A stretch of DNA of 64,000 nt, taken from positions 10,249-74,248 of the forward strand of contig DATHJB010000135.1 of NCBI GenBank assembly GCA_035316325.1. The letters are read 5' to 3'. Source of the stretch: Acidimicrobiales bacterium. Its GTDB lineage: Bacteria; Actinomycetota; Acidimicrobiia; Acidimicrobiales; VFJN01. The notes beneath the pieces were generated by a model, which was not told the DNA's origin, did no database searches, and saw only the letters and a program-made list of their open reading frames with translations. Shown here one piece after another: positions 3,701 through 40,405 of this stretch. Every line of letters starts with the position of its first letter. Position 1 is the first letter of the stretch. A program made the translations under genes and the position numbers.

Positions 3701-4449
3701 GGCGTCTCTTCCACCACCTTCTGGTTGCGCCGCTGCACCGAGCAGTCCCGCTCGCCCAACGTCAGCACCGCGCCCTGCCCGTCGCCGAACACCTGCACCT
3801 CGACGTGGCGGGCCCGGGGCAGGAACCGCTCCAGGTACACGTCGGCCGACCCGAAGTTGGCGGACGCGAGGTGCGTCACCTGGTCGAACGCGGCCTCCAG
3901 ATCGTCCGCCGAACGGCACACCCGCAGCCCGATGCCGCCCCCACCGGCGCTCGACTTCAGCATCACCGGGTAGCCGATCGACTCCGCCGCCTCCACCGCC
4001 GCCGAGACCGACGCCAGCAGCTCCGTCCCCGGCAGCAGCGGCACGCCCACCGACCGGGCGACCTCCCGGGCCAGGTGCTTCTCCCCGAACTGCCGCAGCT
4101 GGTCCGGCGTCGGTCCGACGAACGCGACCCCCGCGGCCTCGGCCAGCTCGGCGAAGTCGGCCCGCTCCGACAGGAACCCGTAGCCCGGGTGGATGGCACC
4201 GGCGCCCGTCGCCACCGCCGCGTCGACGATGCGCGCCGCCTGCAGGTACGAGTCGTCGGCCGCCGCCGGCCCGAGCCGCACCGCCTGGTCGGCCATGCGC
4301 ACGTGGGCCGCGCCCCGGTCGGCGTCGGAGTGGACGGCCACCGCCTCGCAGCCCAGGTCGTGCAGCGTGCGGATGATGCGACAGGCGATCTCCCCCCGGT
4401 TCGCCACCAACACCCGCTCGAACGGCGGCAATGGGCGGCGCCCGCTCAA
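769..4449 (-). CDS. urea carboxylase family enzyme (possibly guanidine carboxylase): biotin carboxylase + AHS1/AHS2 carboxyltransferase + biotinyl carrier domains
   Basis: Part of track ORF 769..5301. Contains ERVLVANRGEIACRIIR, GYPVMLKSSAGGGGIG, allophanate-hydrolase-subunit-like middle domains and a C-terminal biotinylation motif VVLEAMKTE. Start taken as TTG 4449, overlapping the upstream TGA (TTGA). An alternative in-frame TTG lies at 4431. Confidence 0.9.
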   Translation of the reverse strand: MSGRRPLPPFERVLVANRGEIACRIIRTLHDLGCEAVAVHSDADRGAAHVRMADQAVRLGPAAADDSYLQAARIVDAAVATGAGAIHPGYGFLSERADFAELAEAAGVAFVGPTPDQLRQFGEKHLAREVARSVGVPLLPGTELLASVSAAVEAAESIGYPVMLKSSAGGGGIGLRVCRSADDLEAAFDQVTHLASANFGSADVYLERFLPRARHVEVQVFGDGQGAVLTLGERDCSVQRRNQKVVEETPAVGLAPATRAALVADARALAAAVGYRSAGTVEFVVDADSGEHHFLEVNTRLQVEHGVTELTHDVDLVAWMVRLAAGDRGMFSSPVPVGTGHAVEARVYAENPAREFQPSPGRLTHVRLPSGDGVRCDGWVEAGTEVTPWYDPLLLKVLAHGPDRSAALARLDGALAELQLDGIETNVEHLQAILADPRFVAGRATTALLADLPFRPYAVEVGATGSESGGRSLVVSYPGRRGYWSVGVPPSGPMDDWSFRLGNQLLGNRPDAAGLECSVAGPTLLFHRPAVVCLMGADMSAQLEVATGDARNGPVLSQFRPIEVPAGATLRLGRIVGAGARAYLTVRGGLAVPEVLGSRTTFDLGGFGGLAGRELQPGDLLRIDPEPVAPVVAAGLPAEVAPELTDRWSLAVLDGPHAAPEYLTDDDVELLYGTDWEVHYNSARTGVRLVGPRLSWARPDGGEAGLHPSNIHDNAYAVGTVDFTGDMPVILGPDGPSLGGFVCPATVVDADLWKIGQLRAGDKVRLVPVTVAAAEAGRRAQDAILAAPAGGAAGIEPLPALARRTGPAVTVLGRTEPTARPPLTFRRSGDRHLLVEVGLPVLDLDLRVRVHQLAAWFAAEQVAGVVDLTPGIRSLQVQVDGHDLTVEQAIDLVRRADSELPGVDDVVLPSRVVHLPLSWDDPAVRKAIDIYMRSVRPDAPWCPSNLEFIRRVNGLDSIDDVRAIAFAADYVVYGLGDVYLGAPVATPLDPRHRLVTTKYNPARTWTPENAVGIGGAYLCVYGMEGPGGYQFIGRTTQMWRRWPAEGETPWLLRFFDRLRFYPVEADELLELRAERDAGRWSPEITDGTLSIAEHHGFLAAEAEGIAAFGAHQRAAFGAEREAWEARGELAAADAIERSMLEAPAAGPEVEVPDGAWAVTAPLAARVWSVAVKEGDRLEAGDTMVVLEAMKTETVLRAPEAATVVRLACEPGELVAPGRILAVVMPR
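2770..2823 (+). repeat. degenerate copy of the same palindromic repeat, inside the carboxylase coding sequence
   Basis: CCGAAACTGCGACAGAACCGGCCCGTTTCGGGCGTCTCCTGTCGCAACTTCGAG. The first 17 nt match copy D at 16 of 17 positions. The right arm CTGTCGCAACTTCGAG pairs with the left arm at 12 of 15 positions. It lacks the ATGGCGCCAT core. Confidence 0.55.
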
Positions 4450-5054
4450 CGAGACACCACGACCCGGATCGGGGTGGGGTTGAAGTCGTTGCAGGGGTTG
4501 TTGATCTGCGGGCAGTTGGAGACGGCGACGAGCACGGGTCGCTCGGCCCGCAGCTCCACGTACTTCCCGGGTGCGGAGAGCCCGTCGACGATGCCGAGCG
4601 AACCGTCGGCCTCCACCGGCACGTTCATGAACCAGTTGACGTTGCTGACCATGTCGCGCTTGCCCCGCCCGTAGGGCGCCAGGGCGGTGAGGAAGTTGTC
4701 GATGCAGGCGTGCTGGTGCTTGGTGTGGTGCCCGTAGCGCACGGTGTTCGACTCGCACGAGCAGGCGCCGCCGATGGTGTCGTGGCGCCCCACGACGTCG
4801 TCGACGACCGTGAGCAGCGGTTCTCCCTCGCCGTCGCGCAGCACGGAGCCGGTGGTGAGGAAGATGTTGCGCTGGGCGGCGATGGTGACCGAGGCGTCGT
4901 ACCGCAGGTCGGGATCGACGGCGTCGTAGACGATGAAGTCGACGGCCTGGTTGCCTTCGAGGTCGACGATGCGCAGGGTGTCGCCGGTCTCCAGGCGACG
5001 CGACCACGGCGCCCGGGCGGGCACGACCTCGTCGAGGATCACCGAGCCGGTCAC
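4446..5054 (-). CDS. urea-carboxylase-associated DUF1989 protein (carboxyguanidine-deiminase-subunit-like), short paralogue
   Basis: C-terminal 202 aa of track ORF 4446..5774: VTGSVILDEVVPARAPWSRRLETGDTLRIVDLEGNQAVDF...GGACSCESN...NCPQINNPCN. GTG start at 5054 overlaps the upstream stop (GTGA). Confidence 0.85.
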   Translation of the reverse strand: MTGSVILDEVVPARAPWSRRLETGDTLRIVDLEGNQAVDFIVYDAVDPDLRYDASVTIAAQRNIFLTTGSVLRDGEGEPLLTVVDDVVGRHDTIGGACSCESNTVRYGHHTKHQHACIDNFLTALAPYGRGKRDMVSNVNWFMNVPVEADGSLGIVDGLSAPGKYVELRAERPVLVAVSNCPQINNPCNDFNPTPIRVVVSR

Positions 5055-5941
5055 GGTGCCACCGCCCCGCTGGCGGCGCCGGACGACGAGAGCGTGAGCA
5101 GCACGTCGTCGGTGTTCTCGAACGCCCGCTGCGCCTCGGGTGACGCGGTGCGGGCGGGGTGGTCGGGGCCGGCCGCCGCCCCCGACCACCCCGTGAGCCG
5201 CACCTCGCCGCCCGTGTACGCCGGCCGCTCGTCGAGCGGGTGGGGCGTGACGGCGACGGTGACCAGCACGTCGAGCTCGGCGCGCAGGGTGAGGTGCGCA
5301 CCCGGCGGCCCCGAGGGGGTCAACGCCAGCCCGCCGTCGGCGTCGACCCGCACGGAGCGGAACAGGTTGGCGCTGGGGGGCAGGTCGCGCCGGGTGAGCC
5401 CGTGCTTGGCCAGCCCCAGCAGCAGCCGGTCGCGCCCGCTGGGCGTGGGGGAGTGGTTGCCGCTCCCGCCGTACCGCTCCGCGACGGCCCGCCGGGTCGA
5501 CGCGCCGCACAGCAGGTCGAGCGCCCCCGTGCTGTCCGGCAGGATCGAGCACAGGACCCGCCCCATGTCGGACAGCAGCAGCGCCCCCGCCCCCAGGTAG
5601 GCGTTCCACTGGAGCTTGACGGTGTCGGCCACGTTGAGGCGCTCGATCGGCCGGGCCGCGTGGTGGAGCACCAGGTTGACGTTGGTGTCGCCGTCGACAT
5701 CCGTGAGCTGCAGGTGCGTGCCCCGCCGGATCACCCGGCTGGCGTAGCCGCCCAGCGCCAGCGTCTCGTCCCACACGACGGAGGACGCCTCGACGCCGGG
5801 CGGCAGGTCGGTGGCGGTCGACGCCGGGATGGTCGGCTGCGTGGTCATCGCGGCCGCCGCGGCGCTGGCGGCCTGGGCCCGGGCGTGGTCCCGGGCTCCG
5901 AGCACGGTGCCCGTTCCGCTGTCCGACGTCGGCGTGTCCAT
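5051..5941 (-). CDS. urea-carboxylase-associated DUF1989 protein (carboxyguanidine-deiminase-subunit-like), long paralogue
   Basis: C-terminal 296 aa of track ORF 5051..7135: MDTPTSDSG...GYASRVIRRGTHLQLTDVDGDTNVNLVLHH...LRAELDVLVTVAVTPHPLD. ATG 5941 is preceded by GAGGCTGGGGG. Third-codon positions are almost all G/C from this ATG on and are not upstream of it. An alternative ATG lies at 5977. Confidence 0.8.
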   Translation of the reverse strand: MDTPTSDSGTGTVLGARDHARAQAASAAAAAMTTQPTIPASTATDLPPGVEASSVVWDETLALGGYASRVIRRGTHLQLTDVDGDTNVNLVLHHAARPIERLNVADTVKLQWNAYLGAGALLLSDMGRVLCSILPDSTGALDLLCGASTRRAVAERYGGSGNHSPTPSGRDRLLLGLAKHGLTRRDLPPSANLFRSVRVDADGGLALTPSGPPGAHLTLRAELDVLVTVAVTPHPLDERPAYTGGEVRLTGWSGAAAGPDHPARTASPEAQRAFENTDDVLLTLSSSGAASGAVAP

Positions 5942-6986: not shown

Positions 6987-8039
6987 GTGCCGAGTAAGAC
7001 CCGATCCCGTTGGGCCTGGCTACCGCTTGTCCCACTGCTCATCGCCGTCTCCGCCTGTGGTGACGACGACGACGCCGAGACCGGCAGCGGTAGCGGCAGT
7101 GAGCCGGCGGAGTCGAGCAGCGGTGAACCCATCACCCTGGGCTACAGCGCCTGGCCGGGGTGGTTCCCGTGGGCCGTCACCGAGGAGGCGGGCATCTTCG
7201 ACGAGGTCGGCCTCGAGGTCGACCTGACGTTCTTCGCCGACTACCTGACCTCGCTGGAAGCCATGGCGACCGGCGAGATCGACGCCAACAGCCAGACCCT
7301 CAACGACACGCTCGTGTCGGTGTCCGCGGGCAGCGACCAGCGGATCGTGATCACCAACGACAACTCGGCCGGCAACGACGCCATCATCGTCGACGAGTCG
7401 ATCACGAGCATCGCCGACCTGGAGGGCAAGACCGTCGCCGCCGAGCTGGGCGTGGTCGACCACTTCCTGCTGCTGCAGGGCCTCGCCGAAGAGGGCCTCA
7501 CCGAGGCGGACGTCGACTTCCGCGGCGTGCTCACCGATGCCGCCGCCACCGGCTTCGCCAACGGGGAGTTCGACGCGGTGGGCGTGTTCGCCCCGTTCAC
7601 GCTGACCGCCCTGGAGCGGCCCGGCTCCCACGTGCTGTTCGACTCGTCCGACTTCCCCGGCACCATCCCCGACCACCTGGTCGTCACACCCGAGATGGTC
7701 GAGGACCGGCCCGAGGACGTCCAGAAGCTGGTCGACGCCTGGTACGCCACGCTCGACTACATGGAGGAGAACCCGGAGGAGGCCCGGGAGATCATGGCGG
7801 GCGTCGCCGAGATCTCGCCGGAGGAGTACGAGTCGCTCGAGGCCGGCACGAAGCTCTTCAGCGCCGAGGAGGCCCTGGCGGCCTTCGAGGGCGAGGAGGC
7901 TCCCGAGGGCCTGGCGCCGATGGCCGAGCAGATCAGCGAGTTCCTGGTCACCGCCGGGCTCGCCGAGGAGGCCCCGCCGCTCGACGACCTGCTCGACCCC
8001 TCCTTCACCCAGGACTACATCGACCGGAACGGTGACTGA
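6987..8039 (+). CDS. ABC transporter substrate-binding lipoprotein, NitT/TauT (NMT1/SsuA-like) family
   Basis: Track ORF 6810..8039. GTG 6987 lies 7 nt after GGAGGAG. Signal peptide with lipobox LLIAVSAC. ITLGYSAWPGWFPWAV is typical of this SBP family. Confidence 0.85.
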   Translation: MPSKTRSRWAWLPLVPLLIAVSACGDDDDAETGSGSGSEPAESSSGEPITLGYSAWPGWFPWAVTEEAGIFDEVGLEVDLTFFADYLTSLEAMATGEIDANSQTLNDTLVSVSAGSDQRIVITNDNSAGNDAIIVDESITSIADLEGKTVAAELGVVDHFLLLQGLAEEGLTEADVDFRGVLTDAAATGFANGEFDAVGVFAPFTLTALERPGSHVLFDSSDFPGTIPDHLVVTPEMVEDRPEDVQKLVDAWYATLDYMEENPEEAREIMAGVAEISPEEYESLEAGTKLFSAEEALAAFEGEEAPEGLAPMAEQISEFLVTAGLAEEAPPLDDLLDPSFTQDYIDRNGD

Positions 8040-8976
8040 GATCGGTCGTTCGTCCACCACCTCGGGGGCGGCGCCCATGCCGACGGGCTCGGCAGCCTCG
8101 GCGGGTACAGCGGCCGCGACGTCTGCACCAGCAGCGTCGCGGCCGTCGCCTGCCCCCGCCGGTAGAGGGAGAGGCAAGGGGCGGGGCCGGCGGCCGATCC
8201 TGCTGCTGGAGCTGCGGAGCCAGCTGCCCGGCTACGTCCGCTGGCTGCTCGCCGCCCTGGGCCTGGCGGCGGTCTTCGCCCTGTGGCTGTGGGCGGCGAG
8301 CCGGCCCAGCCGGACCGTCATCGTCCCGTCGCCGGGCGACACCTGGACGGCGCTGCGCGAGCTGTGGACCGACGGGCTCCTGTGGAGCGACCTCACGGCG
8401 TCGGGGGAGCGCATCCTCTACGGCTACTCGATCTCGATGGCGATCGGCATCGTGCTGGGTGTCGCCATGGGTTCGCTGCTGGCCGTCGAGGCGACGTTCG
8501 AGGCCCCGATCGCCTTCATGCGCTACGTCCCCGCGGCCGCCCTGACCCCGTTGATGATGTCGTGGCTGGGGATCGACGAGAGCCCCAAGATCACGCTGAT
8601 CGTGCTGGGCACGGTGTTCTTCAACGTCCTGATGGTGGGCGACGTCGCCCGGGCCGTGCCCCGCGAGCTGATCGAGGCCAGCTACACGCTGGGTGCCCGG
8701 CGGACGACGGTGCTGGGGAGGATCGTGTTCCGGCACTCCCTGCCCGGGATCATCGACGTGGCGCGGATCAACCTGGCCGCCGCCTGGCTGATGCTGGTGG
8801 TGTCCGAGCTGCTGGCCGCCAACGAGGGCCTGGCGTTCCGGATCATCAAGGCGCAGCGGTTCAAGAACTACGACACGATGTTCGCCGTGCTGCTGGTGTT
8901 CGGCGTGGTCGGTGTGGTGACCGACCTGGCGTTGCGCTGGTTGCGCAACCTCTCGTCCCCGTGGGCCCGGCCATGA
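8032..8976 (+). CDS. ABC transporter permease, NitT/TauT family
   Basis: Track ORF 8032..8976. Multi-TM protein with the EAA-type loop LIEASYTLGARRTTVLGRIVFRHSLPGI. GTG start overlaps the SBP stop. Confidence 0.85.
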   Translation: MTEIGRSSTTSGAAPMPTGSAASAGTAAATSAPAASRPSPAPAGRGRGKGRGRRPILLLELRSQLPGYVRWLLAALGLAAVFALWLWAASRPSRTVIVPSPGDTWTALRELWTDGLLWSDLTASGERILYGYSISMAIGIVLGVAMGSLLAVEATFEAPIAFMRYVPAAALTPLMMSWLGIDESPKITLIVLGTVFFNVLMVGDVARAVPRELIEASYTLGARRTTVLGRIVFRHSLPGIIDVARINLAAAWLMLVVSELLAANEGLAFRIIKAQRFKNYDTMFAVLLVFGVVGVVTDLALRWLRNLSSPWARP

Positions 8977-9779
8977 CCGGCGCCATGCGGAAGCTCGAGA
9001 TCACCGGGCTGACGAAGACCTTCCCCGGCCGGCGCAAGGCGCCCCCGGTGGAGGCTCTGGGCGGTGTCGACCTGCACGTCGACGAGGGCGAGCTCGTCTC
9101 GCTGATCGGCACCTCGGGGTGCGGGAAGTCGACGCTGCTGCGGATCGTCGGCGGCCTGGAGCGTGCCGACGGCGGCGAGGTGCTGGTCGACGGCGAGCCC
9201 GTGATCGGCCCGGGGCCGGACCGGGGGATGATCTTCCAGGGGTACTCGCTGTTCCCGTGGCTGACGGTGGCCGGCAACATCAACTTCGGGCTGAAGCTGG
9301 CCGGCGTGCCGTCGGGTCGCCGCTCGCAGCGGGTGGCCGAGCTGCTGGGCGTCATGGGGCTCGCCGAGCACGCCGGCCGCCTGCCCCGGGAGCTGTCGGG
9401 CGGCATGCGCCAGCGGGTGGCGATCGCCCGCGCCCTGGCTCCCGAGCCCGACGTGCTGCTGCTGGACGAGCCGTTCGGGGCGCTCGACGCCCAGACCCGC
9501 CTGTCGATGCACGAGTTCCTGCGGTCGGTGTGGCACCGCACGGGTGCGACGATCCTGATGGTCACCCACGACGTGGACGAGGCCGTGTACCTGTCGCGCC
9601 GGGTCTACGTGATGCACGCCCATCCGGGGCGGATCGTCGACGAGGTGCAGCTGCCGTTCGAGCCCGGGCTCGGCCCGTCGATCAAGCGCAGCCCGCAGTT
9701 CCTCGACATCCGTGACGAGATCCACGAGGCACTGGTGTCGGAGGACGCCGCGGAGCGTGAGCCGGCGTCGTCGTCGTAG
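8973..9779 (+). CDS. ABC transporter ATP-binding protein, NitT/TauT family
   Basis: C-terminal 268 aa of track ORF 8283..9779. Walker A GTSGCGKST, signature LSGGMRQRVAIARAL, Walker B LLLDEPFGALD. ATGA overlap with the permease gene. Confidence 0.9.
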   Translation: MTGAMRKLEITGLTKTFPGRRKAPPVEALGGVDLHVDEGELVSLIGTSGCGKSTLLRIVGGLERADGGEVLVDGEPVIGPGPDRGMIFQGYSLFPWLTVAGNINFGLKLAGVPSGRRSQRVAELLGVMGLAEHAGRLPRELSGGMRQRVAIARALAPEPDVLLLDEPFGALDAQTRLSMHEFLRSVWHRTGATILMVTHDVDEAVYLSRRVYVMHAHPGRIVDEVQLPFEPGLGPSIKRSPQFLDIRDEIHEALVSEDAAEREPASSS

Positions 9780-9837
9780 CTCGTCGGATCCCCGTGCGTA
9801 GTGACGGGAGCACGTCGCGTCCCATTTGCCGAGGGCG

Positions 9838-9866
9838 TTGACGATGTAAGGCGCGCTCCTTAACCT
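9838..9866 (+). promoter_or_regulatory. candidate promoter giving a leaderless TetR mRNA
   Basis: TTGACG (9838-9843), 17-nt spacer, TAACCT (9861-9866). ATG 9875 follows 8 nt after the -10 hexamer. Confidence 0.35.
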
Positions 9867-9874
9867 TGTGGGCC

Positions 9875-10513
9875 ATGGGAGCCGGCAGCGCAGCACGTGA
9901 GGCGATGATCGATGCCGCAGAGCGGCTGGTCGCCGAAGAGGGCGTCGCCGCCTGCTCGCTGCGTGAGGTGCAGGCCCTCGCCGGGCAGCGCAACAAGTCG
10001 GCGGCCCACTACCACTTCGGCTCCCGTGACGGCCTGGTGGAGGCCATCGTCGAGACCCGCATGGGGCCCATCAACGCCGCCCGCCTGGCCCTGATCGACG
10101 AGCTCGACGCCCAGGGCCGCGGCGACGACCTGCGCGGTCTGGTCGAGGTGCTGGTCGACCCGCTCGCCGACGCCACCCTGCGCCGGCCGGGCAGCGCCTA
10201 CGCCCGCTTCCTCGCCCACGTGCTGGACGACCCGAAGACCACTGCCGCCGTCGCCCGCCACCTGCAGGCCGAGAGCATCCGGATCACCCGGCAGCGGTTG
10301 GCCGCCCAGATCGCCGACGTGCCCGACGAGCTGCGGGACGTGCGCATCGATCGGGCCATCGGGATGCTGATCATCTCGCTGGCCGCGTGGGAGGACCTGC
10401 CGGGCCCGCACGAGACGCGGGTGGCCGACCTGGTCGACGCCTGCGTCGCGGTCCTGCAGGCGCCGCTGTCGGCACGGACCCGGGCCGCGATCGAGGGGGA
10501 GGCGGCGACGTGA
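9875..10513 (+). CDS. TetR family transcriptional regulator
   Basis: Track ORF 9866..10513 (TTG). In-frame ATG at 9875. HTH MIDAAERLVAEEGVAACSLREVQALAGQRNKSAAHYHFGSRDGL. Confidence 0.8.
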   Translation: MGAGSAAREAMIDAAERLVAEEGVAACSLREVQALAGQRNKSAAHYHFGSRDGLVEAIVETRMGPINAARLALIDELDAQGRGDDLRGLVEVLVDPLADATLRRPGSAYARFLAHVLDDPKTTAAVARHLQAESIRITRQRLAAQIADVPDELRDVRIDRAIGMLIISLAAWEDLPGPHETRVADLVDACVAVLQAPLSARTRAAIEGEAAT

Positions 10514-11772
10514 GCGCACGTTCGCTGGAGATGTCGGAGCGGTTGTGGACCGGCGAGCTGGAGCCCGGCGAGGTCCACCCGGTGGTCGTGAACAGCGACC
10601 TCGACGAGGTGGCGCCCGGCGTCGCCTTCGTGCCCGCGTTCGGGAGCATCTGCGCCTTCGACCTGGGCGACGAGCTGCTGCTGGTCGACACCGGCAACCG
10701 CTTCCTGGCCCGCCGCAACTTCGAGCGGGTGCGGGGCTGGACCGCAGCGCCGCTGACCACCGCCGTCTACACGCACGGGCACATCGACCACGTCTTCGGG
10801 CTCGGGCCGTACGAGGCGGAGGCCGCCGAGAAGGGCTGGCCGCAGCCCCACGTCGTCGCCCACCGCGACCTGCCCAAGCGCTTCGACCGCTACGTGCTCA
10901 CCGCCGGCTACAACGGCGTGATCAACGCCCGCCAGTTCAAGATGGGCACCTTCGACTGGCCGACGGACTACCGCTACCCGGACCAGACCTACGACGACCG
11001 GCTCGACCTGGTCGTCGCCGGCGAGCGCTTCGAGCTGCACCACGCCATGGGCGAGACCGACGACCACACGTGGACGTGGGCGCCCGACCGGCGGGTCCTC
11101 TGCTCCGGCGACATGTTCATCTGGGCCAGCCCCAACTGCGGCAACCCCCAGAAGGTGCAGCGCTACCCCCGGGAGTGGGCGCTGGCGCTGCGGGAGATGG
11201 CGGCGCTCGAGCCCGAGCTGCTGCTGCCGGGCCACGGCTGGCCGATCGCCGGCGTCGACCGGGTGGTCCAGGCGCTGACCGAGACCGCCGACCTGCTCGA
11301 CAGCCTCGTCACCCAGACGCTCGAGCTGATGAACCAGGGCGCCCGTCTCGACGAGATCGTGCAGGCCGTGAAGGCGCCGCCGGAGCTGCTGGAGCGGCCC
11401 TACCTGCGGCCGATCTACGACGAGCCCGAGTTCGTGGTGCGCAACCTGTGGCGCCTCTACGGGGGCTGGTACGACGGCAACCCTTCTCACCTCAAACCAT
11501 CGGGGGATGCGGCACTGGCCGGTGAGGTCGCGGCGCTGGCGGGCGGCGCCGCGACCCTCGCCGGCCGGGCATTGGAGCTGCTGGCGGGCGGCGACCTGCG
11601 CCTGGCGGGCCACCTGGCCGAGATGGCGGCTCAGGCGGCCCCGGACGACCCGGGCGTCCACAAGGCCCGGGCCGAGGTGTTCGCCGCCCGGGCCGCCGAG
11701 GAGCTCTCCACCATGTCGAAGGGGATCTTCTCCTGGGCCGCCGACGAGTCGTCAGCCCGGGCGGGAGGCTGA
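10510..11772 (+). CDS. MBL-fold alkyl/aryl-sulfatase-like hydrolase (SdsA1/BDS1 type), without the C-terminal SCP-2 domain
   Basis: Track ORF 10387..11772. GTG 10510 overlaps the TetR stop (GTGA). Metallo-beta-lactamase motif YTHGHIDHVFG. Alkylsulfatase dimerisation-domain motif RNLWRLYGGWYDGNPSHLKP. Confidence 0.8.
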   Translation: MSARSLEMSERLWTGELEPGEVHPVVVNSDLDEVAPGVAFVPAFGSICAFDLGDELLLVDTGNRFLARRNFERVRGWTAAPLTTAVYTHGHIDHVFGLGPYEAEAAEKGWPQPHVVAHRDLPKRFDRYVLTAGYNGVINARQFKMGTFDWPTDYRYPDQTYDDRLDLVVAGERFELHHAMGETDDHTWTWAPDRRVLCSGDMFIWASPNCGNPQKVQRYPREWALALREMAALEPELLLPGHGWPIAGVDRVVQALTETADLLDSLVTQTLELMNQGARLDEIVQAVKAPPELLERPYLRPIYDEPEFVVRNLWRLYGGWYDGNPSHLKPSGDAALAGEVAALAGGAATLAGRALELLAGGDLRLAGHLAEMAAQAAPDDPGVHKARAEVFAARAAEELSTMSKGIFSWAADESSARAGG

Positions 11773-33939: not shown

Positions 33940-34434
33940 TCAGTCGCCGTTGTCGGGCTGGCGGACCTCGTTGCCGACGCCTTCGACCGCCACGTCGTCG
34001 ACCGCCTCGCCGACAACGACCTGGTTCCCGGCACCGGTGACCCGGAGCGCGTCGGTGGACTCGACGGTCACGACGTGATCCGTGCCGGTGACGGCGACCT
34101 CACCGCAGCTCCCGGTGACGGCGACGGCGCGGCTGGAGCCCTCGATGCTGACGTCGTCGCCGTCGTCGCAGGCGATGGTCTCGCCGTCGCCGTCGCGGTC
34201 GCCGTCGCCGTCGCCTTCACCACCACCCTCGTCGTCCGGGCCGCCGTCGTCATCGCCGTCGTCGTCGCCGTCATCCCGGTCGTCGTCCTGGTCGTCGGGC
34301 GGGGCGGCGGTGGTGGTGGTCGTCTCGACCTGGGCCTCGCCGGAGTCGATGCTCACCTCGGCGTCGTCGTCCCCGCAGGCGCCCAGCAGCACGACGGCCG
34401 CGACGGCGACCAGGACGACCGTGACCCGCCTCAT
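33940..34434 (-). CDS. DUF3060-like lipoprotein with an acidic low-complexity linker
   Basis: Track ORF. Lipobox VLLGAC. Repeated V.V.G..N.V.V units (VAVTGSCGEVAVTGTDHVVTVE, VTGAGNQVVVGE). ATGA overlap with the OmpA-like gene. Confidence 0.7.
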   Translation of the reverse strand: MRRVTVVLVAVAAVVLLGACGDDDAEVSIDSGEAQVETTTTTAAPPDDQDDDRDDGDDDGDDDGGPDDEGGGEGDGDGDRDGDGETIACDDGDDVSIEGSSRAVAVTGSCGEVAVTGTDHVVTVESTDALRVTGAGNQVVVGEAVDDVAVEGVGNEVRQPDNGD

Positions 34435-35177
34435 ACCTGGGCGCCGGCCAGCAGGATCTCGACGCGGCGGTTGCGCTGGCGGCCCGTCGGGTCGTCCCCG
34501 CCGCCCGGCTTGGAGTTGGGGGCGATCGGCCGGGTCTCGCCGTAGCCCGTCGCCGTGACCCGGTCGCGCTCGACACCCAGGATCACCAGCGCCTCCCGCA
34601 CCACGCCGGCGCGGGCCTCGGAGAGCCGCTGGTTGTAGTCGTCGGTGCCGACCGAGTCGGTGTGGCCGCCGATGTCGAGCGCCGACTCCGGCGAGGCCTT
34701 GGCCAGGCCCGCCACCAGGCTCAGCTTCTCCCGGGAGGCGGGCCGCAGGCCGACGCTGCCGAAGTCGAACAGCACGCTGTCGGGCAGCGGCACGGAGATG
34801 CCCCGGTCGGTCACCTCGCCGCCCAGCTCACCCACGGCCTCGTCGGGCGACATGGAACGCTCGCCGTCGGGCCCGGCGATCACGATCTGGTCGTCGTCGG
34901 TCACCGTCACCGAGATGCCGGCGAAGTCGGCGCAGCCGTCCACCTGGATGCCGGCCGCGGCGCACGGGTCGGTGCTGTCGGGTATCGCCCCCGGCACCGA
35001 TGTCTCCGGCGGCGCGGTCGTCTCTGCGGCGGGCTCGGTCGTCGTTGTGGTCGACGTCGCCGGCGGCTCGTCGGCCGCGGCCGCCGACGACGAGGCGTCC
35101 TCGGCGCCGCCGCCCCCGCATCCGGCCGCCAACGTCAACACGACCCCTACCGTCAATCCCCCAGCTATCCCTCGCAT
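34431..35177 (-). CDS. OmpA/MotB-domain peptidoglycan-binding lipoprotein
   Basis: Track ORF 34431..35237, start taken at ATG 35177 (MRGIAGGLTVGVVLTLAAGC lipoprotein signal). C-terminal GHTDSVGTDDYNQRLSEARA...NRRVEI. Confidence 0.85.
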   Translation of the reverse strand: MRGIAGGLTVGVVLTLAAGCGGGGAEDASSSAAAADEPPATSTTTTTEPAAETTAPPETSVPGAIPDSTDPCAAAGIQVDGCADFAGISVTVTDDDQIVIAGPDGERSMSPDEAVGELGGEVTDRGISVPLPDSVLFDFGSVGLRPASREKLSLVAGLAKASPESALDIGGHTDSVGTDDYNQRLSEARAGVVREALVILGVERDRVTATGYGETRPIAPNSKPGGGDDPTGRQRNRRVEILLAGAQV

Positions 35178-35290
35178 GCGGTCCACCGTACGCAGCGGAG
35201 CCGCTCGGTGTACCGCGGTCACCGCCGCCCGCGTCATACTCGGTGCGGACAGAGGCCGGCGCTGGTTCCGGTGGCAACGCGGGGAGAGGC

Positions 35291-38200
35291 ATGGGAGCCG
35301 AGGCGGCGCTGACCGAGAACGAGCTGACCGCCGCCGACCCCGCCACAGGTCATCCCCTGATGGCGTTCGCGCCCCGCCTGGCCCTGTGGGTGGCGATCGT
35401 CGCCCTCGATGTGGTCGCCGATCCCGACCCGGCGCTGGTGCTGCTGCTGATCGCCCTCGCCGGCGTGGTCACCATCGTCACCGACAGCCGCTTCGCCTGG
35501 GAGCGCGGCCTCGAGGCGCGGAGCATCCCCAGCCGAGAGGCATGGGTGCCGCTGGCGATGCTCGGGCTCATGCTGCAGCTCGACCTGGTGCAGTCCGGCA
35601 GCATCGGCGACGTGCTGGGCGACAAGGGCCCGGTGATCCTGTTCATCATGGGGTTCGCCCTGGTGTCGGAGGGCCTGCGCCGGTCGGGGTTCATCCACTT
35701 CCTGGCCTACCGGCTGACCGACCGGGGCGGCTCCAACACCACCCGGCTGACGCTCTACCTGTTCCTGCTGTCGTCGCTGCTCACGTACTTCACGTCGAAC
35801 GACATCGTGGTGCTGACGATGACGCCGATCGTGATGTCGGTCGCCTACCAGGCCCGCATCCGCAACGCGAAGCTGCTGCTCCTCAGCCAGTTCATCGCCG
35901 CCAACACGGTGTCGATGGGCATCCTCATCGGCTCGCCCACCAACCTGATCCTGGGCCAGGCGATGGACATCCGCTTCGTCGAGTACCTGTTCCTGATGCT
36001 GGCGCCGGCGACCGTGGCGCTGATGGTCACGTTCGTCTTCGTCACCTGGGTGAACGGGTTCGTCGAGAAGCGGGGCCGCTCCGAGAACCGGGTGCTCCGC
36101 TGGCTGGTCGGCACCTGGACCCACGAGGACCGCTACAGCCCGCCACGCTTCTCCGAGTACCGCACCTTCACCGGCGAGATGCGCACCTGGGTGGGGGTGT
36201 TCGCCCTGGCGGTGCTGTTGCTGACGGTGGGCACGGCCACCAACACGGGCCTGCTGTTGGCGGCGATCGCCATCGCCGGGCTGGGCCTCTACACCTTGCG
36301 GCGCAGCGCCCGGAACCGTGACGAGCCGACGGGCCGGCTGTTCATGGTCCGGAGCCTGCGGGTGCTGCCGTTCGGCATCGTGTTCTTCGGCCTCACCTAC
36401 TTCGTGCTCGCCGACGCCATGGCCGACACCCGGTTCGTGCAGGAGGACGTCGACGAGTTCGTCACCGACCACGCCTCCAGCCACACGCCGGTGCCCTCGT
36501 GGGGGGCGATGCTGACGTCGGGCGGGCTGGTCAACACCATGAACGACCTGCCGGCCTCGGCGCTGACGGGCACGGTGCTGGAACGGGTCGAGTTCGACAC
36601 GCCGTTCGACCGGGCGCTGGTGGTGCAGGGCACGGCGGCGGGCCTCAACATCGCCACCTACGTCACGCCGGTCGGCGCGCTCGCCGGGATCATCTGGTTC
36701 GACATCCTCCGCAAGGAGAAGCAGTCCCAACGGCTCAGTGCCGCCAAGAGCGGCCGGGCGGCGTTCGACGTGGTGACGCCCAGCCGGCGTGATCTGGTCG
36801 TCTACGGCAGCGTCATGTTCCTGGCCACCACCGCGGTGCTGGGGGCCACCAACTTCGGGTTCGTGGCCCTGGCCGACGCGCTGCTGGGCCCGCCGTCGGG
36901 CGGCAGCGAGTTCGGCACGGCGTCGTCCCACATGTTCTGGATGGTGGTGTGCCTGGCGCTGGTGGTCGCCGTGGTGGTGGCGTTCCGCCGGGTGCTGTCG
37001 TCGGCCGGCGTGGCGCTCTCCCACCTGGGCGACGTGCTGGTCGTGCTCACCCAGGTGCGACTGTGGGCGTCGCGGCACAAGCTGCTCGCCGCGGCCTGCA
37101 TCGCCGGCCTCCTCTTCACCGCCAGCGGGGTGCTGCTCTACTGGGCCGAGACGTTCCACGCCCGCGAGTACGGCCGGTCGGCGCTGTTCGAGGACCCCGG
37201 CGAGTTCATGACGTGGCTCACCGTGTTCGTGTCGAGCGGCTTCGAGAACTCCCGCTTCCCGCGCAGCACGCTGGGCCACATCCTCTCGGCCGCGCTCGCC
37301 CTGGGGGCTCTGACCGCCCTGCTGGCGTTCGTGCGGATCTCGACCAGCCCCACCGACCTCGGCCTGCGCCGCAAGCTCGCCCGCGGCGAGATCCCGTCGG
37401 AGCGGCTGGTGGTGGTGAACTGCGCCGTCGACAACCTGGCGCTGGTGCAGACGCTGATCAAGGAGTCGGGGCGGTTCGTCACCATCGCCAGCCGCGACCC
37501 CCTCCTGGAGACCCGCTTCGGGCTGCGCAAGAACGACCGGGTCGACGTGATCCCCTACGAGGGCGGCACCGCCGAGCTGGTCGGGTCGCTGCGGCTGCAC
37601 GAGGCCCACGAGCTGGTGCTGCTGAGTCGCTCGGTGACCGACGACTTCGAGAACCTGGCGCTGCTGGCCGCGCTCGACGCCCAGATGGTGACGCCGCCGG
37701 CGACCGTGCTGCAGGTGCACGAGCGGGAGCTGTCGCTGCTGCTCGACCGGCGGGTCAGCTCGGAGCTGCGGTCCGCCGTGGTGCGCACGCCGTTCGACCT
37801 GGTGGTCAGCGCGTTCCTGGTGGCCGACGCCGCCGGTCTCCCGGCCGAGCTGCAGGGCCTGTACCGCGAGCCGCTGGTCGGCCGGACCGCCGAGCCCGAT
37901 GTCGACCCCCACATCCGCCTGCGGGGCGTCGGCCACCCGCTCACGGTCGGCGTCGACTCGTCGCGGGCCGGTGCCGGGCCCCGGAGCGTCGTCCACGTGG
38001 TGGGGGCCGGGTGCTTCGCCCAGACCTGTGCGCTCGACCTGGTGACGCTGGGCGTGCCCGACGTGCGCCTGGTGGTCGCCGCCGACGAGCCCCTGCTCCC
38101 CGGCGTGACGGGCACCGCCGGGCTCACGGTCGTCAGCTGCGACAACGAGCGCGACGCCGCCGACCTGCTGTCCCCGTCGGCCTCGCCGGACGATGCGGCG

Positions 38201-38692
38201 ATCCTGCTGCTGGAGGGCGCGGGCGAGGTCGGGCTCGACAGCGAGCGCCTGCTGGAGCGGCTCAGCATCGCCCGCCTGCACCACGGCGACTCGAGGAAGC
38301 CGGTGCCGTTCCTCCTCGTGGGCTGCCGGGGCGCCGACCGGGCCTGGCGGATCGGCAACTTCGTGGTCGACAAGGCGGTCGACACGACGTGGGTCGAGTC
38401 GTCGTACTTCTCCGTGTTCTCGGCGGTCTACTTCGACGTGCTGCTGGCCGACGAGGAGCTGGCCAACTGGTTGCCGGTGCGGCAGCTGGCGGTGGCGCAC
38501 CGGGTGGCGAGCCAGCTGTGCCACTTCGAGGTGGCGCCGGTCGGGAGCCTCCGATCCGCGGCCGAGGGATCGGTGCGCATCGCCATCGAGCACGACGACG
38601 ACCGCCGCCCGCTCGTCGCCGTCGACGTGAAGATGGTCCCCGACGAGCAGCTCGCCCCCGTCGACCTCCTCGTCGGCATCTCCTACCGCTGA
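35291..38692 (+). CDS. chimeric membrane protein: ArsB/NhaD-type (IT-superfamily) permease + 2-TM K-channel-like pore with a degenerate filter + two RCK/TrkA-N-like domains
   Basis: Track ORF 35000..38692, start at ATG 35291 after GGGGAGAGG. Permease motifs TSNDIVVLTMTPIV and GSPTNLILG. Pore EFMTWLTVFVSSGFENSRFPRSTLGHILSAALALGAL. Rossmann-like RLVVVNCAVDNLALVQTLIKESGRFVTIASRDP and VVHVVGAGCFAQTCALDL. Confidence 0.75.
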   Translation: MGAEAALTENELTAADPATGHPLMAFAPRLALWVAIVALDVVADPDPALVLLLIALAGVVTIVTDSRFAWERGLEARSIPSREAWVPLAMLGLMLQLDLVQSGSIGDVLGDKGPVILFIMGFALVSEGLRRSGFIHFLAYRLTDRGGSNTTRLTLYLFLLSSLLTYFTSNDIVVLTMTPIVMSVAYQARIRNAKLLLLSQFIAANTVSMGILIGSPTNLILGQAMDIRFVEYLFLMLAPATVALMVTFVFVTWVNGFVEKRGRSENRVLRWLVGTWTHEDRYSPPRFSEYRTFTGEMRTWVGVFALAVLLLTVGTATNTGLLLAAIAIAGLGLYTLRRSARNRDEPTGRLFMVRSLRVLPFGIVFFGLTYFVLADAMADTRFVQEDVDEFVTDHASSHTPVPSWGAMLTSGGLVNTMNDLPASALTGTVLERVEFDTPFDRALVVQGTAAGLNIATYVTPVGALAGIIWFDILRKEKQSQRLSAAKSGRAAFDVVTPSRRDLVVYGSVMFLATTAVLGATNFGFVALADALLGPPSGGSEFGTASSHMFWMVVCLALVVAVVVAFRRVLSSAGVALSHLGDVLVVLTQVRLWASRHKLLAAACIAGLLFTASGVLLYWAETFHAREYGRSALFEDPGEFMTWLTVFVSSGFENSRFPRSTLGHILSAALALGALTALLAFVRISTSPTDLGLRRKLARGEIPSERLVVVNCAVDNLALVQTLIKESGRFVTIASRDPLLETRFGLRKNDRVDVIPYEGGTAELVGSLRLHEAHELVLLSRSVTDDFENLALLAALDAQMVTPPATVLQVHERELSLLLDRRVSSELRSAVVRTPFDLVVSAFLVADAAGLPAELQGLYREPLVGRTAEPDVDPHIRLRGVGHPLTVGVDSSRAGAGPRSVVHVVGAGCFAQTCALDLVTLGVPDVRLVVAADEPLLPGVTGTAGLTVVSCDNERDAADLLSPSASPDDAAILLLEGAGEVGLDSERLLERLSIARLHHGDSRKPVPFLLVGCRGADRAWRIGNFVVDKAVDTTWVESSYFSVFSAVYFDVLLADEELANWLPVRQLAVAHRVASQLCHFEVAPVGSLRSAAEGSVRIAIEHDDDRRPLVAVDVKMVPDEQLAPVDLLVGISYR

Positions 38693-39180
38693 GGCGGCGG
38701 CCCGATCACGATCGTCATGCAGGCGCTGGTGGCGCTGTCCACGTAGTCGCCGAACGGCGGGCACGGCGTGAAGCCGACCCTCGCGTACAGGGCGCGGGCG
38801 GGGGCGAACGCCTCCATGACCCCGGTCTCGAGGCTCACCCGGCGGTAGCCCCGCTCGCGTGCGACCGACAGGAGGTGCTCGACCAGCGCCCGTCCCACGC
38901 CCTGGCCCCTGGCAGCCTCGGCGGTGTGGAACGACTTCAGCTCGGCGTGGGCGTCGTCCAGCTGCTTGAGGGCGCCGATGCCGAGGAGGCGGTCGTCGCG
39001 GCGGGCACGGGCGCTGAAGAAGGTGACGCTCGGGTCCGCGAGGCCGTCGACGCCCAGCGCATGGACGCCCTCGGGTGGCGTGACCTCCCGGGCGAACGCC
39101 AGGTGCCGCTCCAGCAGCGCGCGCACGTCGTCGGCGTTCGGATCGTCGTTGGCGATGACCAGGTCCATCACGCCGCCCAT
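38683..39180 (-). CDS. GNAT family N-acetyltransferase
   Basis: Track ORF. Acetyl-CoA motif ARGQGVGRALVEHLL. An alternative ATG lies at 39168. Confidence 0.8.
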   Translation of the reverse strand: MGGVMDLVIANDDPNADDVRALLERHLAFAREVTPPEGVHALGVDGLADPSVTFFSARARRDDRLLGIGALKQLDDAHAELKSFHTAEAARGQGVGRALVEHLLSVARERGYRRVSLETGVMEAFAPARALYARVGFTPCPPFGDYVDSATSACMTIVIGPPPQR

Positions 39181-39286
39181 TCAAGCGGGATCGGGACCCC
39201 GGCCAGAGCTACCGGTAACTTCCCCCTCCAACCACCCCGCCGCCGCCCCAAGCGGGCTCGGGCTTCGCCGAGGCAAACTCCCCGGT

Positions 39287-40405
39287 ATGGACCTGGAGCT
39301 GCCGCCCGACGACGATCCCCGGCGCAAGGCCGTGCGGGCTTGGCTGGAGGAGCACCCGGCGCCGAGTGGACGGCAGCTGGCCGACGCCGGGTACGTCGCA
39401 CCGCACTGGCCGCGGCCGTGGGGCCTCGACGCCGACCCGATCCACCAGATCGTGATCGACGACGAGCTGAAGCGGGCGGGCGTCCGTCGTCCGGTCAACC
39501 CGATCGGCATCGGCTGGGCCGGCCCGACGCTGCTCCACGCCGGCACCGAGGAGCAGAAGGAGCGCTACCTGTTCCCGCTGCTGTCGGGCAAGGAGATGTG
39601 GTGCCAGCTGTTCAGCGAGCCCGGCGCCGGCTCCGACCTGGCGTCCTTGACGACCCGGGCCGAGCTCGACGGCGACGAGTGGGTGGTCACCGGGCAGAAG
39701 GTGTGGACGTCGCTGGCGCACGTGTCGCGCTACGGGATCCTCATCGCCCGCACCGACCCGTCGGCACCGAAGCACCGGGGCATCTCCTACTTCGTGTGCC
39801 CGATGGACACGCCCGGCATCACCGTCCGCCCGCTGGTGGAGATGACCGGCGCCCACACGTTCAACGAGGTGTTCCTCGACGAGGTGCGGCTCCCCACCGA
39901 GCACCTGGTGGGGGAGGTGGGCCAGGGCTGGGACCTGGCCAAGGTGACGCTGGCGAACGAGCGGGTGTCGCTGTCGTCGGGCGGGGCGCTGTGGGGCCAG
40001 GGGCCGTCGTTCGAGACGCTGCTGGGCGTGGTGCGGGACAAGGGCGGCGTCGACGACCCGCTGCTGCGGGACCGTTTGGTGCGGCTCTGGATGGAGGCGC
40101 AGGTGCTGCGCATGATCCGGCTCCGGACGGTCACGGCGGCGGTGAAGGGGACCCAGCCGGGGCCGGAGGCGTCGGTGCGCAAGATCATCGCCGACGAGCA
40201 CGGCCAGAAGTTGTTCGAGCTGGCCAAGGACCTGGCCGGCCCGGCCGGGATGCTCACCGACGGCGGCCCCCTCGGCGCCGACGTCGACCTCTGGCACCAC
40301 GGCTACCTCTTCGCCCGCGCCCTCACGATCGGCGGCGGCACCACCGAGGTCCAACGCAACATCATCGCCGAACGCGCCCTCGGCCTCCCCCACGATCCGC
40401 CGTAG
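39287..40405 (+). CDS. acyl-CoA dehydrogenase
   Basis: C-terminal 372 aa of track ORF 38924..40405, from ATG 39287 (MDLELPPDDDPRRK). WCQLFSEPGAGSDLASL, GQKVWTS, TIGGGTTEVQRNIIAE. Confidence 0.9.
   Translation: MDLELPPDDDPRRKAVRAWLEEHPAPSGRQLADAGYVAPHWPRPWGLDADPIHQIVIDDELKRAGVRRPVNPIGIGWAGPTLLHAGTEEQKERYLFPLLSGKEMWCQLFSEPGAGSDLASLTTRAELDGDEWVVTGQKVWTSLAHVSRYGILIARTDPSAPKHRGISYFVCPMDTPGITVRPLVEMTGAHTFNEVFLDEVRLPTEHLVGEVGQGWDLAKVTLANERVSLSSGGALWGQGPSFETLLGVVRDKGGVDDPLLRDRLVRLWMEAQVLRMIRLRTVTAAVKGTQPGPEASVRKIIADEHGQKLFELAKDLAGPAGMLTDGGPLGADVDLWHHGYLFARALTIGGGTTEVQRNIIAERALGLPHDPP

Follow-up and report, generated by a model that had tools for sequence, protein, structure and literature searches.

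Carriers and channels are normally seen as separate solutions to membrane transport, and the question raised by one gene of an Acidimicrobiales bacterium is what to make of a polypeptide that appears to be both. The gene lies in a stretch of 64,000 nucleotides (contig DATHJB010000135.1, positions 10,249 to 74,248; hereafter the window), where a sequence-only reading, made without database searches, had seen a single open reading frame (ORF) fusing a permease to a K+-channel-like pore with a degenerate filter and two RCK-like domains. That architecture is well supported by the analysis given here. What appears to be new is the joining of a carrier to a whole RCK-channel module, together with a new subfamily of P-loop, the fold of each module being known in itself. 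A carrier/RCK-channel fusion is not described in the literature searched, the coverage of which was incomplete, so that its absence there is no proof of novelty.

One frame through carrier and channel

With a G+C content of about 72%, the window has long spurious ORFs everywhere, and codon-position composition was for that reason examined. The relevant plus-strand frame is open from 35000 to 38692, and the probable start is the ATG at 35291, supported by the homologous N-terminus of relative P0004 (MATEAASTEDE...); from there it has 1133 codons plus a stop, giving a product of 1133 amino acids. In this frame the G+C content of third codon positions (GC3) is 0.88 over the first 150 nucleotides and thereafter 0.94-1.00 to the last interval within the ORF, with a drop to 0.66-0.78 directly upstream of the gene. 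Since GC3 is continuously high, one coding frame crosses the junction between permease and channel, and 35291-38692 is one continuous gene.

The same junction is present in many independent assemblies. It runs through in P0004, P0105, P0107 and P0014, and is kept in the full-length proteins P0005, P0006, P0008 and P0011; in L003/P0010, at 41% identity, it is covered from the start codon through to the first RCK domain, and in P0002 the frame is open to the first base of the contig. An isolate genome (IMCC26207) and a 4.2-Mb contig also have it. A contig from JGI sample 3300041966 (P0003) has the gene in three consecutive ORFs in different frames (2117-2485, 2470-4065 and 4068-5897; 122, 531 and 609 aa), and this broken copy is what could be said in favour of two ordinary genes having been joined in the window by an assembly error or by a missed stop or frameshift. 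However, one of its breaks is inside the pore helix and not at a domain boundary, and has the look of a sequencing error more than of genes split in nature; frameshift errors in assembly, or a pseudogene, are the probable explanation. With frame and GC3 continuous in the window, and the junction recurring as described, an artefactual fusion can for practical purposes be dismissed.

An IT-superfamily carrier of a distinct subfamily

The N-terminal module is, as had been proposed, a bona fide IT-superfamily carrier. Pfam CitMHS (PF03600) matches residues 84-429 with E=2.6e-27 (96.2 bits against a cut-off of 31.9) and Pfam ArsB (PF02040) matches with E=1.2e-6 (28.6 bits against 22.2), a Na_sulph_symp match being sub-threshold. 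Against the solved ArsB structure 10tp_A the family profile gives E=2e-24 over both halves (chain residues 27-394), in an alignment that takes in NDxxxLxLTPI and NNMP/ITPIGSLA. Motifs of the superfamily are present at residues 169-181 (SNDIVVLTMTPIV) and 214-222 (GSPTNLILG), and of those of hairpin type the first half has TSNDIVVLTMTPI and GSPTNLI, the second NDLPASAL and TPVGALAG. For the claim that the halves are duplicated there is a weak profile-profile signal (E=0.003), which places TSNDIVVL on NTMNDLPA.

Which substrate is carried is another matter. NCBIfam models for ArsB, MamN and DASS match only far below their curated cut-offs, those for ArsB at 76.4 against 457 bits (NF011980), 51.5 against 415 (TIGR00935) and 44.5 against 760 (NF033877), and no ars genes (arsR, arsC or arsA) are among the neighbours in the window or near three relatives. 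On both counts an arsenite pump was rejected. When residues 1-540 were used as query, permease subfamily members scored at least 175 bits and generic ArsB/CitMHS proteins at most 108, and from this gap the carrier is taken to belong to a distinct ArsB/CitMHS-like permease subfamily.

A channel subunit that Pfam does not see

The sequence-only reading had accepted that it would be refuted if profile searches showed no Ion_trans_2 or TrkA similarity in residues ~600-1130, and, read to the letter, the Pfam outcome is just that. When residues 541-1133 were searched against Pfam, whole and as three pieces, no match to Ion_trans_2 (PF07885), Ion_trans, TrkA_N (PF02254), TrkA_C, Slo-like_RCK (PF22614), Castor_Poll_mid (PF06241) or BK_channel_a was found at E<=10. 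The 38 members of the family alignment (A4) likewise have no match to Ion_trans_2, TrkA_N, TrkA_C or Slo-like_RCK at E<=0.05, and Ion_trans_2 is not matched at E<=0.01 in any of ten relatives scanned. TrkA_N or Slo-like_RCK matches appear only in more distant relatives with the same pore (P0049, P0063, P0067 and P0069). Such matches to residues 541-1133 as were returned by Pfam, NCBIfam or single-sequence searches of the PDB, e.g. DUF7315 (E=0.045) or leucine-rich repeat proteins (E=0.017), were discarded as noise. The absence of Pfam matches is a failure of sensitivity on this family and does not mean that the fold is absent, since it is outweighed by the family profile and by structural comparison, on which identification of the module depends.

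An AlphaFold2 monomer of the C-terminal module, built on the 38-sequence alignment, has a mean predicted local distance difference test score (pLDDT) of 87.8 and a predicted template modelling score of 0.80 (an input of four sequences gave a pLDDT of 54 and was unusable). In this model residues ~544-1133 are a complete subunit of GsuK type, with a two-transmembrane (2-TM) P-loop pore followed by two tandem RCK domains. Foldseek comparison of the model with the PDB has GsuK as best match (E=7e-14 over 619 columns, for a chain of 547 residues), followed by the TrkA gating ring 4j9v (1.9e-10), Slo1/BK channels and rings (3e-10 to 1e-6; 1.2e-7 for the BK ring 3u6n), the LjCASTOR ring 6o7a (6.6e-8), full-length MthK (1e-6) and the Kch RCK domain 1id1 (1.9e-3). 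Generic Rossmann enzymes mostly rank lower, the exceptions being UDP-glucose dehydrogenase and dipicolinate synthase, which fall in between the lower MthK matches. For the pore there is also the evidence of sequence profiles: the 38-sequence profile matches MlotiK1 with E=3e-4, then Kv3.1 (0.03), Kv2.1 and KCNQ1/2/4/5, all over the same ~90 positions. The order of outer helix, pore helix and inner helix (M1-P-M2) that had been assigned by eye to nucleotides 37080-37340 (residues 597-684) therefore holds in model, profile and structural match alike, with pLDDT values of 82-94 across the region. A loop at residues 650-659 is modelled between pore helix and M2, and a short linker helix (residues 688-697) after M2.

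Two further helices precede M1. The first, here called TMa, belongs to the channel module, as standalone modules also have it, with the profile match starting from position ~8. The second is amphipathic and probably lies at the membrane interface in the manner of an S4-S5 linker; its counterpart in the alignment is MlotiK1 from residue 113 on, a segment just before the pore module there, which we take to be the S4-S5 linker. The distribution of charge suggests how the chain is threaded. Lysine and arginine abound in the loop that leads to the last carrier helix (LRKEKQSQRLSAAKSGRAAFDVVTPSRRD) and are missing from the one after it, residues 534-546 (PPSGGSEFGTASS); an arginine pair follows TMa, and the amphipathic helix next to it comes with R590, R595 and K597. 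By the positive-inside rule the carrier would end outside, TMa would run from out to in, the second helix would lie at the inner interface and M1 would start in the cytoplasm, as M1 does in all P-loop channels. The scheme would also suit relatives, described below, in which a binding domain that must be periplasmic takes the place of the carrier.

A conserved filter that is not that of potassium channels

No gap interrupts the profile alignment between the invariant pore-helix tryptophan and the glycine at the start of M2, and W641, P656, S658 and G661 fall on the W, P, S and G of K+ channels. This sets S648-G-F-E-N-S653 opposite T-T-G-Y-G-D and F-P-R-S opposite I-P-Q-S. The register first proposed was another, with SSGFEN on TVGYGD; it puts G on G and F on Y at the cost of one deletion plus one insertion. 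Sequence alone does not settle the choice between the two, and a K+ filter is absent in both: in the register anchored on the flanks the two filter glycines give way to F650 and N652, and in the alternative the second glycine is a glutamate. Neither the signature T-[VI]-G-[YF]-G nor TVGYG itself is present in S-S-G-F-E-N-S, and the proposal that canonical K+ selectivity is unlikely thus holds whichever register is chosen. An ordinary K+-selective RCK channel of MthK or GsuK type, fused to a permease, would fit the overall fold and architecture, which are closest to GsuK, and IMG names some distant relatives 'voltage-gated potassium channel'; nevertheless, such a channel is very improbable given these glycine replacements and the failure of Ion_trans_2 on the window protein, the A4 members and the ten scanned relatives.

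What is kept instead is a signature of its own, W-x2-V-F-x2-[ST]-G-[FY]-[ED]-x3-F-P-x-[ST]-x2-G. Counted over 57 family sequences, carrier-less relatives included, W641 and P656 are present in all 57, S/T658 in 56, G/A661 in 55, S/T648 in 52, and G649 and F/Y/L650 in 50 each; then come F645 (43/57), F655 (42/57), and V644 and E/D651 (41/57 each).

Tandem RCK domains

The structural matches to GsuK and to the TrkA, BK and CASTOR rings sustain the assignment of two RCK-like domains. In the model the first (RCK1, domain ~705-865) has a Rossmann-type N-lobe plus a helix-turn-helix crossover, and the second (RCK2, ~900-1129) a Rossmann N-lobe, crossover helices and a small beta-rich C-lobe, the two being separated by a low-confidence linker. 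When aligned by hhalign with the tails of relatives having a NMT1_3-pore-TrkA_N order, RCK2 gives E=4.3e-5 over 270 columns and RCK1, with TrkA_N-positive tails, E=0.0067, values that are rough and of supporting weight only, the template being poorly trimmed for P0065 and P0067.

RCK1 has indeed lost GxGxxG (VVVNCAVDN is found at its place), and its C-lobe is largely missing in the clade of the window protein. Many genuine RCK domains are without the GxGxxG motif. Two relatives, P0002 and P0003, carry an insert of 75-150 aa between RCK1 and RCK2 (residues ~880-895, nucleotides ~37930-37975; columns ~398-485 of alignment A1), which is missing in the window protein, P0001 and L002, and the larger fusions (1300-1430 aa) are also longer there; the insert is probably the RCK1 C-lobe, lost in the clade of the window protein. 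RCK2 was said to keep the glycine motif. It does have a glycine-rich one, although GAGCFA is GxGxxA rather than GxGxxG and is confined to the close clade. D932 and E933 follow strand B. In the two alignments of close relatives G905, A910 and E933 never vary; D932 is invariant in A3 alone. Together GAGCFA and D932/E933 make a possible nucleotide site.

Features of the carrier-channel gene, with window coordinates (helices and RCK domains as modelled)
Feature	Residues	Nucleotides	Strand	Evidence
Carrier-channel fusion gene		35291..38692	+	ORF; GC3; same fusion in independent genomes and metagenome-assembled genomes
Shine-Dalgarno-like GGGGAGAGG		35281..35289	+	Read directly, just 5' of ATG 35291
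IT-superfamily (CitMHS/ArsB-like) secondary-carrier domain	~24-533	35360..36889	+	Pfam; family profile
Linker transmembrane helix TMa	544-571	36920..37003	+	AlphaFold2 module helix 4-31; hydropathy
Amphipathic helix, LGDVLVVLTQVRLWASRH	574-595	37010..37075	+	AlphaFold2 module helix 34-55
Outer pore helix M1	597-627	37079..37171	+	AlphaFold2 module helix 57-87; aligns with MlotiK1/Kv3.1 outer pore helix
Pore helix, GEFMTWLTVFVSSG	636-649	37196..37237	+	AlphaFold2 module helix 96-109, pLDDT ~88-93
Filter loop S648-G-F-E-N-S-R-F-P-R-S-T659	648-659	37232..37267	+	Column counts; in register with MlotiK1 TTGYGDTIPQS
Inner helix M2	660-685	37268..37345	+	AlphaFold2 module helix 120-145; column counts
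RCK1	~704-880	37400..37930	+	AlphaFold2 beta-alpha pattern, module residues 165-325; Foldseek
RCK2	~899-1133	37985..38689	+	AlphaFold2 module residues 360-589, pLDDT mostly >90; Foldseek
GAGCFA (GxGxxA) of RCK2	905-910	38003..38020	+	Read from sequence

Fused and split relatives

A word-indexed protein search with the C-terminal module yielded no more than four relatives, each of them truncated at a contig end. When 1.84 billion representative proteins were searched exhaustively by HMMER, with a three-sequence profile of the module and E<=1e-3, the yield was 68. By domain coordinates and Pfam scans their architectures are four: (a) carrier, pore and two RCK domains, 1227-1428 aa, the class to which the window protein belongs; (b) the C-terminal module alone, ~750 aa; (c) the same pore preceded by a periplasmic binding domain of TAXI/TRAP type (NMT1_3) and followed by Pfam TrkA_N, Slo-like_RCK and BK_channel_a; and (d) carrier, pore and one RCK domain, ~835-910 aa, as in an uncultured Ca. 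Thioglobus. The fusions come from several Acidimicrobiales metagenome-assembled genomes (MAGs), Actinobacteria bacterium IMCC26207 (KLR61220.1), an Alphaproteobacteria MAG and Sphingomicrobium. In databases they are called 'SLC13 family permease', 'anion permease', 'arsenical pump membrane protein', 'NhaD-like permease' or 'hypothetical', the channel module being unannotated.

Class (c) is made up of the four TrkA_N- or Slo-like_RCK-positive proteins mentioned above plus ~10 more, one of them from a Maricaulis sp.; its P-loop reads [ST]-G-[FY]-E, and it is to some members of this class that the IMG potassium channel name is attached. These proteins look like binding-protein-gated, RCK-regulated channels with a non-K+ filter. 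A fusion of that kind is also without description in the literature searched, with the same incomplete coverage.

Elsewhere carrier and channel are encoded by separate, neighbouring genes. In each of the four distinct contexts examined, a standalone C-terminal module has an orthologous permease gene nearby, with 30-39% identity to the carrier domain of the window protein, which is well above the generic ArsB level. The permease is upstream on the same strand after a 69-bp gap in L004, downstream on the same strand in L006, upstream in L008, and two genes downstream on the opposite strand in L009 (Halobellus sp. GM3, GCA_052545375.1; the channel module there is WP_445085676.1, and the permease, of 478 aa, is at 9440-10876). 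Taking a standalone permease as starting point, L012 has a convergent gene for a 751-aa C-terminal module, which matches the hidden Markov model of the module with E=2e-187. Of the split pairs, one is thus from Halobellus and four are from metagenome contigs. Fusion and neighbourhood pairing are thus conserved across bacteria and archaea, with the genes fused in Actinomycetota and Proteobacteria and split in haloarchaea. In the Halobellus locus, the gene between the two (7327-9411, plus strand) encodes a 694-aa protein with a long pentapeptide-repeat region and then two hydrophobic helices around a K+-channel-like P-loop, YITFLTIGYGG, for which Pfam Ion_trans_2 is only 'faint'; it is a second unusual channel-like protein in the same locus.

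Pairing does not of itself mean coupling, and carrier and channel might be two independent, co-expressed activities directed at the same physiological problem, e.g. ion or osmotic homeostasis, with fusion a convenient form of co-regulation. No conserved interface between the two is known, and gene order and orientation vary in the split pairs, to the point of opposite strands in L009 and convergence in L012. However, several phyla share the covalent fusion, which takes two forms, with one or two RCK domains, and has its linker helix conserved; the permease partners are all of one distinct subfamily; and the fusions persist from 76% down to ~20% identity, which by the Rosetta-stone argument would usually mean physical interaction. 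Uncoupled activities are, on this evidence, distinctly unlikely.

There is a more serious contender, in which the module would be a channel in form only: a non-conducting, tetramerising, ligand-sensing scaffold that switches the carrier on and off, in the manner of the KTN/RCK domains of KefC or of TrkA_C inserts. Loss of the K+ filter signature would suit it, regulation of carriers by RCK domains is established in KefC, and there is the asymmetry expected of an accessory regulator: in this subfamily the module is always with a carrier, fused or adjacent, and the carrier can stand alone. Yet few stretches of the module are as well conserved as the P-loop, and the same signature is kept in the class (c) relatives, which have no carrier to regulate; a pure regulator would have no need of an M1-P-M2 unit with invariant W, P and S/T and a conserved G/A661. 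Conservation of this strength, extending to carrier-less proteins, argues for a working pore and is hard to fit with a decayed relic. The scaffold is accordingly put on the unlikely side, as the main rival to the reading preferred below. Both had been foreseen by the sequence-only reading as possibilities, the scaffold as a channel module reused as a sensor and the preferred reading as a valve coupled to a carrier.

How pore and carrier may work together

The preferred reading, which is judged to be evenly poised between right and wrong, is of a ligand-gated cation pore, not selective for K+, that works as a unit with the carrier. By analogy with GsuK, BK and CASTOR, four chains would assemble around one central pore, with eight RCK domains forming a cytoplasmic gating ring below it and the four carrier domains at the periphery. 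A filter of the form [ST]-G-[FY]-[ED], here S-G-F-E, would be unable to make the canonical four-site K+ filter, and in a tetramer its acidic residue would bring four carboxylates near the pore axis. From these two features a cation pore without K+ selectivity may be envisaged, possibly permeable to divalent ions or blocked by them. Filter glutamates are present in cyclic nucleotide-gated and in Ca2+-selective channels, and theirs is the analogy behind the idea of a non-selective or divalent-sensitive pore. A cytosolic ligand at the RCK ring would open the pore; in this clade a nucleotide, bound at the GxGxxA site of RCK2, is a candidate. That the modules would work as a unit is suggested by their being fused in several phyla and encoded by adjacent genes elsewhere. 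The gated pore could then supply or dissipate the co-ion or charge of the carrier, as a regulated shunt, and the flux through the carrier would in this way follow the ionic or energy state of the cell.

A closer relationship can be entertained more tentatively, as doubtful though well within possibility: a P-loop channel with its own type of filter, physically and mechanistically coupled to an elevator-type IT carrier as one machine. The coupling could take either of two forms, with the gated pore delivering or removing the coupling ion of the carrier, for which KdpA and KdpB provide a parallel, or with the transport cycle of the carrier gating the pore.

Several points weigh against the ligand-gated pore working as a unit with its carrier. 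Tetramerisation, conduction and coupling are all read from a monomer model and from sequence. IT-superfamily carriers are typically dimers, which makes for a stoichiometric mismatch with a four-fold pore. The asymmetry between module and carrier noted above is pertinent here as well, standalone permeases of the subfamily in Ca. Nanohalobium (L010) and in L013 having no channel gene nearby, so that the carrier does not need the channel. (An 858-aa gene beside the Ca. Nanohalobium permease was considered and rejected as a channel module; it encodes a soluble protein, acidic and unrelated.) The acidic filter residue is missing in 16 of the 57 relatives, and a shared ion preference is therefore uncertain. 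As for the ligand, the family consensus is without the GxGxxA motif of RCK2, and RCK1 of the window protein has neither its glycine motif nor most of its C-lobe. Nor are the neighbourhoods of the fusion genes conserved, and they give no hint of substrate.

Gene surroundings

The fusion gene is monocistronic. Upstream on the opposite strand are genes for an OmpA-family protein, a DUF3060 protein and an acyl-CoA synthetase; downstream are a convergent GNAT gene, then an acyl-CoA dehydrogenase gene and then a MFS gene. The GNAT acetyltransferase gene (38683-39180, minus strand) overlaps the fusion gene by 10 nt at their 3' ends (38683-38692), and no terminator-like site is found between the two. 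Two terminator-like matches inside the fusion ORF were rejected, being at about the number expected by chance. A promoter scan gave no sigma-70-like sites around the fusion gene, and an Rfam scan of the window gave no match.

The two divergent genes at 33940-35237 (minus strand) overlap each other by 4 nt. Both products have hydrophobic N-terminal segments, in one of them with a signal-peptide-like, cysteine-containing stretch; one is the OmpA-family protein, which has a Thr/Pro/Ala-rich linker, and the other the DUF3060 protein, which has a long acidic stretch rich in Asp and Gly. An acyl-CoA dehydrogenase gene is near or adjoining the fusion not only in the window (38924-40405, plus strand) but also in an Acidimicrobiales MAG (L002, 1536-2729) and in IMCC26207 (L014, 11300-12532), a proximity that is probably lineage synteny and not a functional link. 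On the 4.2-Mb contig (ERZ25074583; L015, 3799-11441) the fusion gene is between a phage-type integrase gene and insertion sequence transposase genes, with Toprim/DUF3987 genes further downstream, which suggests that there it is on a mobile island.

Significance

A conserved pairing, covalent or operonic, of a complete RCK-gated pore with a secondary carrier would offer a natural setting in which to study the coordination of a conductance with a coupled transporter. If the tentative proposal of a mechanistically coupled machine were true, it would represent a previously undescribed class, and the same pore family would also build binding-protein-gated channels of TAXI/NMT1_3-pore-RCK order. The latter suggest a wider, unstudied set of ligand-gated prokaryotic channels. 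From a practical perspective, the P-loop family defined by the module, whose non-K+ filter is strongly conserved, is invisible to Pfam and NCBIfam, and a new domain model would correct the present permease and hypothetical annotations. Experiments could start from cultured or genome-sequenced sources: the fusion can be taken from IMCC26207 (KLR61220.1), and the split pair, WP_445085676.1 and the permease close to it, from Halobellus sp. GM3.

Comparison with known systems

The N-terminal 530 residues share the fold of ArsB/CitMHS/NhaD-type carriers, the closest known carrier being ArsB/CitMHS. IT carriers with RCK-derived TrkA_C domains are known from Pfam architectures; unlike them, the window protein has as partner a whole pore-forming module with its own transmembrane helices. 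A conceptual likeness is to KdpFABC, where the channel-like KdpA is coupled to the P-type pump KdpB and the coupling tunnel has been demonstrated experimentally. There also, a channel-superfamily module and a transporter module are one machine, although the families are other ones, the components are not a fusion, and for the window protein coupling is only a proposal. Transport proteins under the control of RCK/KTN assemblies are a further parallel, and include KefC (a CPA2 antiporter with KTN/RCK), TrkH-TrkA and KtrB-KtrA. In these the ring is directly on the transporter, whereas in the window protein the ring would be part of a P-loop pore in its own right, itself joined to a carrier of unrelated fold. 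For KefC, control of a carrier by RCK domains is set out in the account given in PMC11150392.

Closer to the C-terminal module are CASTOR/POLLUX/DMI1 and BK (Slo1), with two RCK domains per chain and a gating-ring fold that matches its own. CASTOR and DMI1 are RCK-gated P-loop channels with a non-K+ filter, ADSGNH or ADAGNH, that also has an S-G pair; the filter sequence of the window protein differs from theirs. These channels are eukaryotic, have other N-terminal transmembrane segments and have no carrier domain.

The best structural match to the whole of the module is GsuK of Geobacter sulfurreducens (PDB 4gx0/4gx1/4gx2/4gx5), in which, as in the module, a single chain carries a 2-TM P-loop pore and, after it, two RCK domains in tandem. 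GsuK has a canonical K+ filter and no carrier domain. The window protein differs in its S-G-F-E filter, in the extra transmembrane helix plus interfacial helix before M1, in the IT carrier of ~530 residues, and in a RCK1 lacking glycine motif and most of the C-lobe, with sequence identity between the two modules only 13-15%. By the account in eLife 2012 (PMC3510474), GsuK is a multi-ligand-gated K+ channel, gated by ADP and NAD+, and it is with this nucleotide-gated channel that the GxGxxA...D/E motif kept in RCK2 of the window protein is to be compared.

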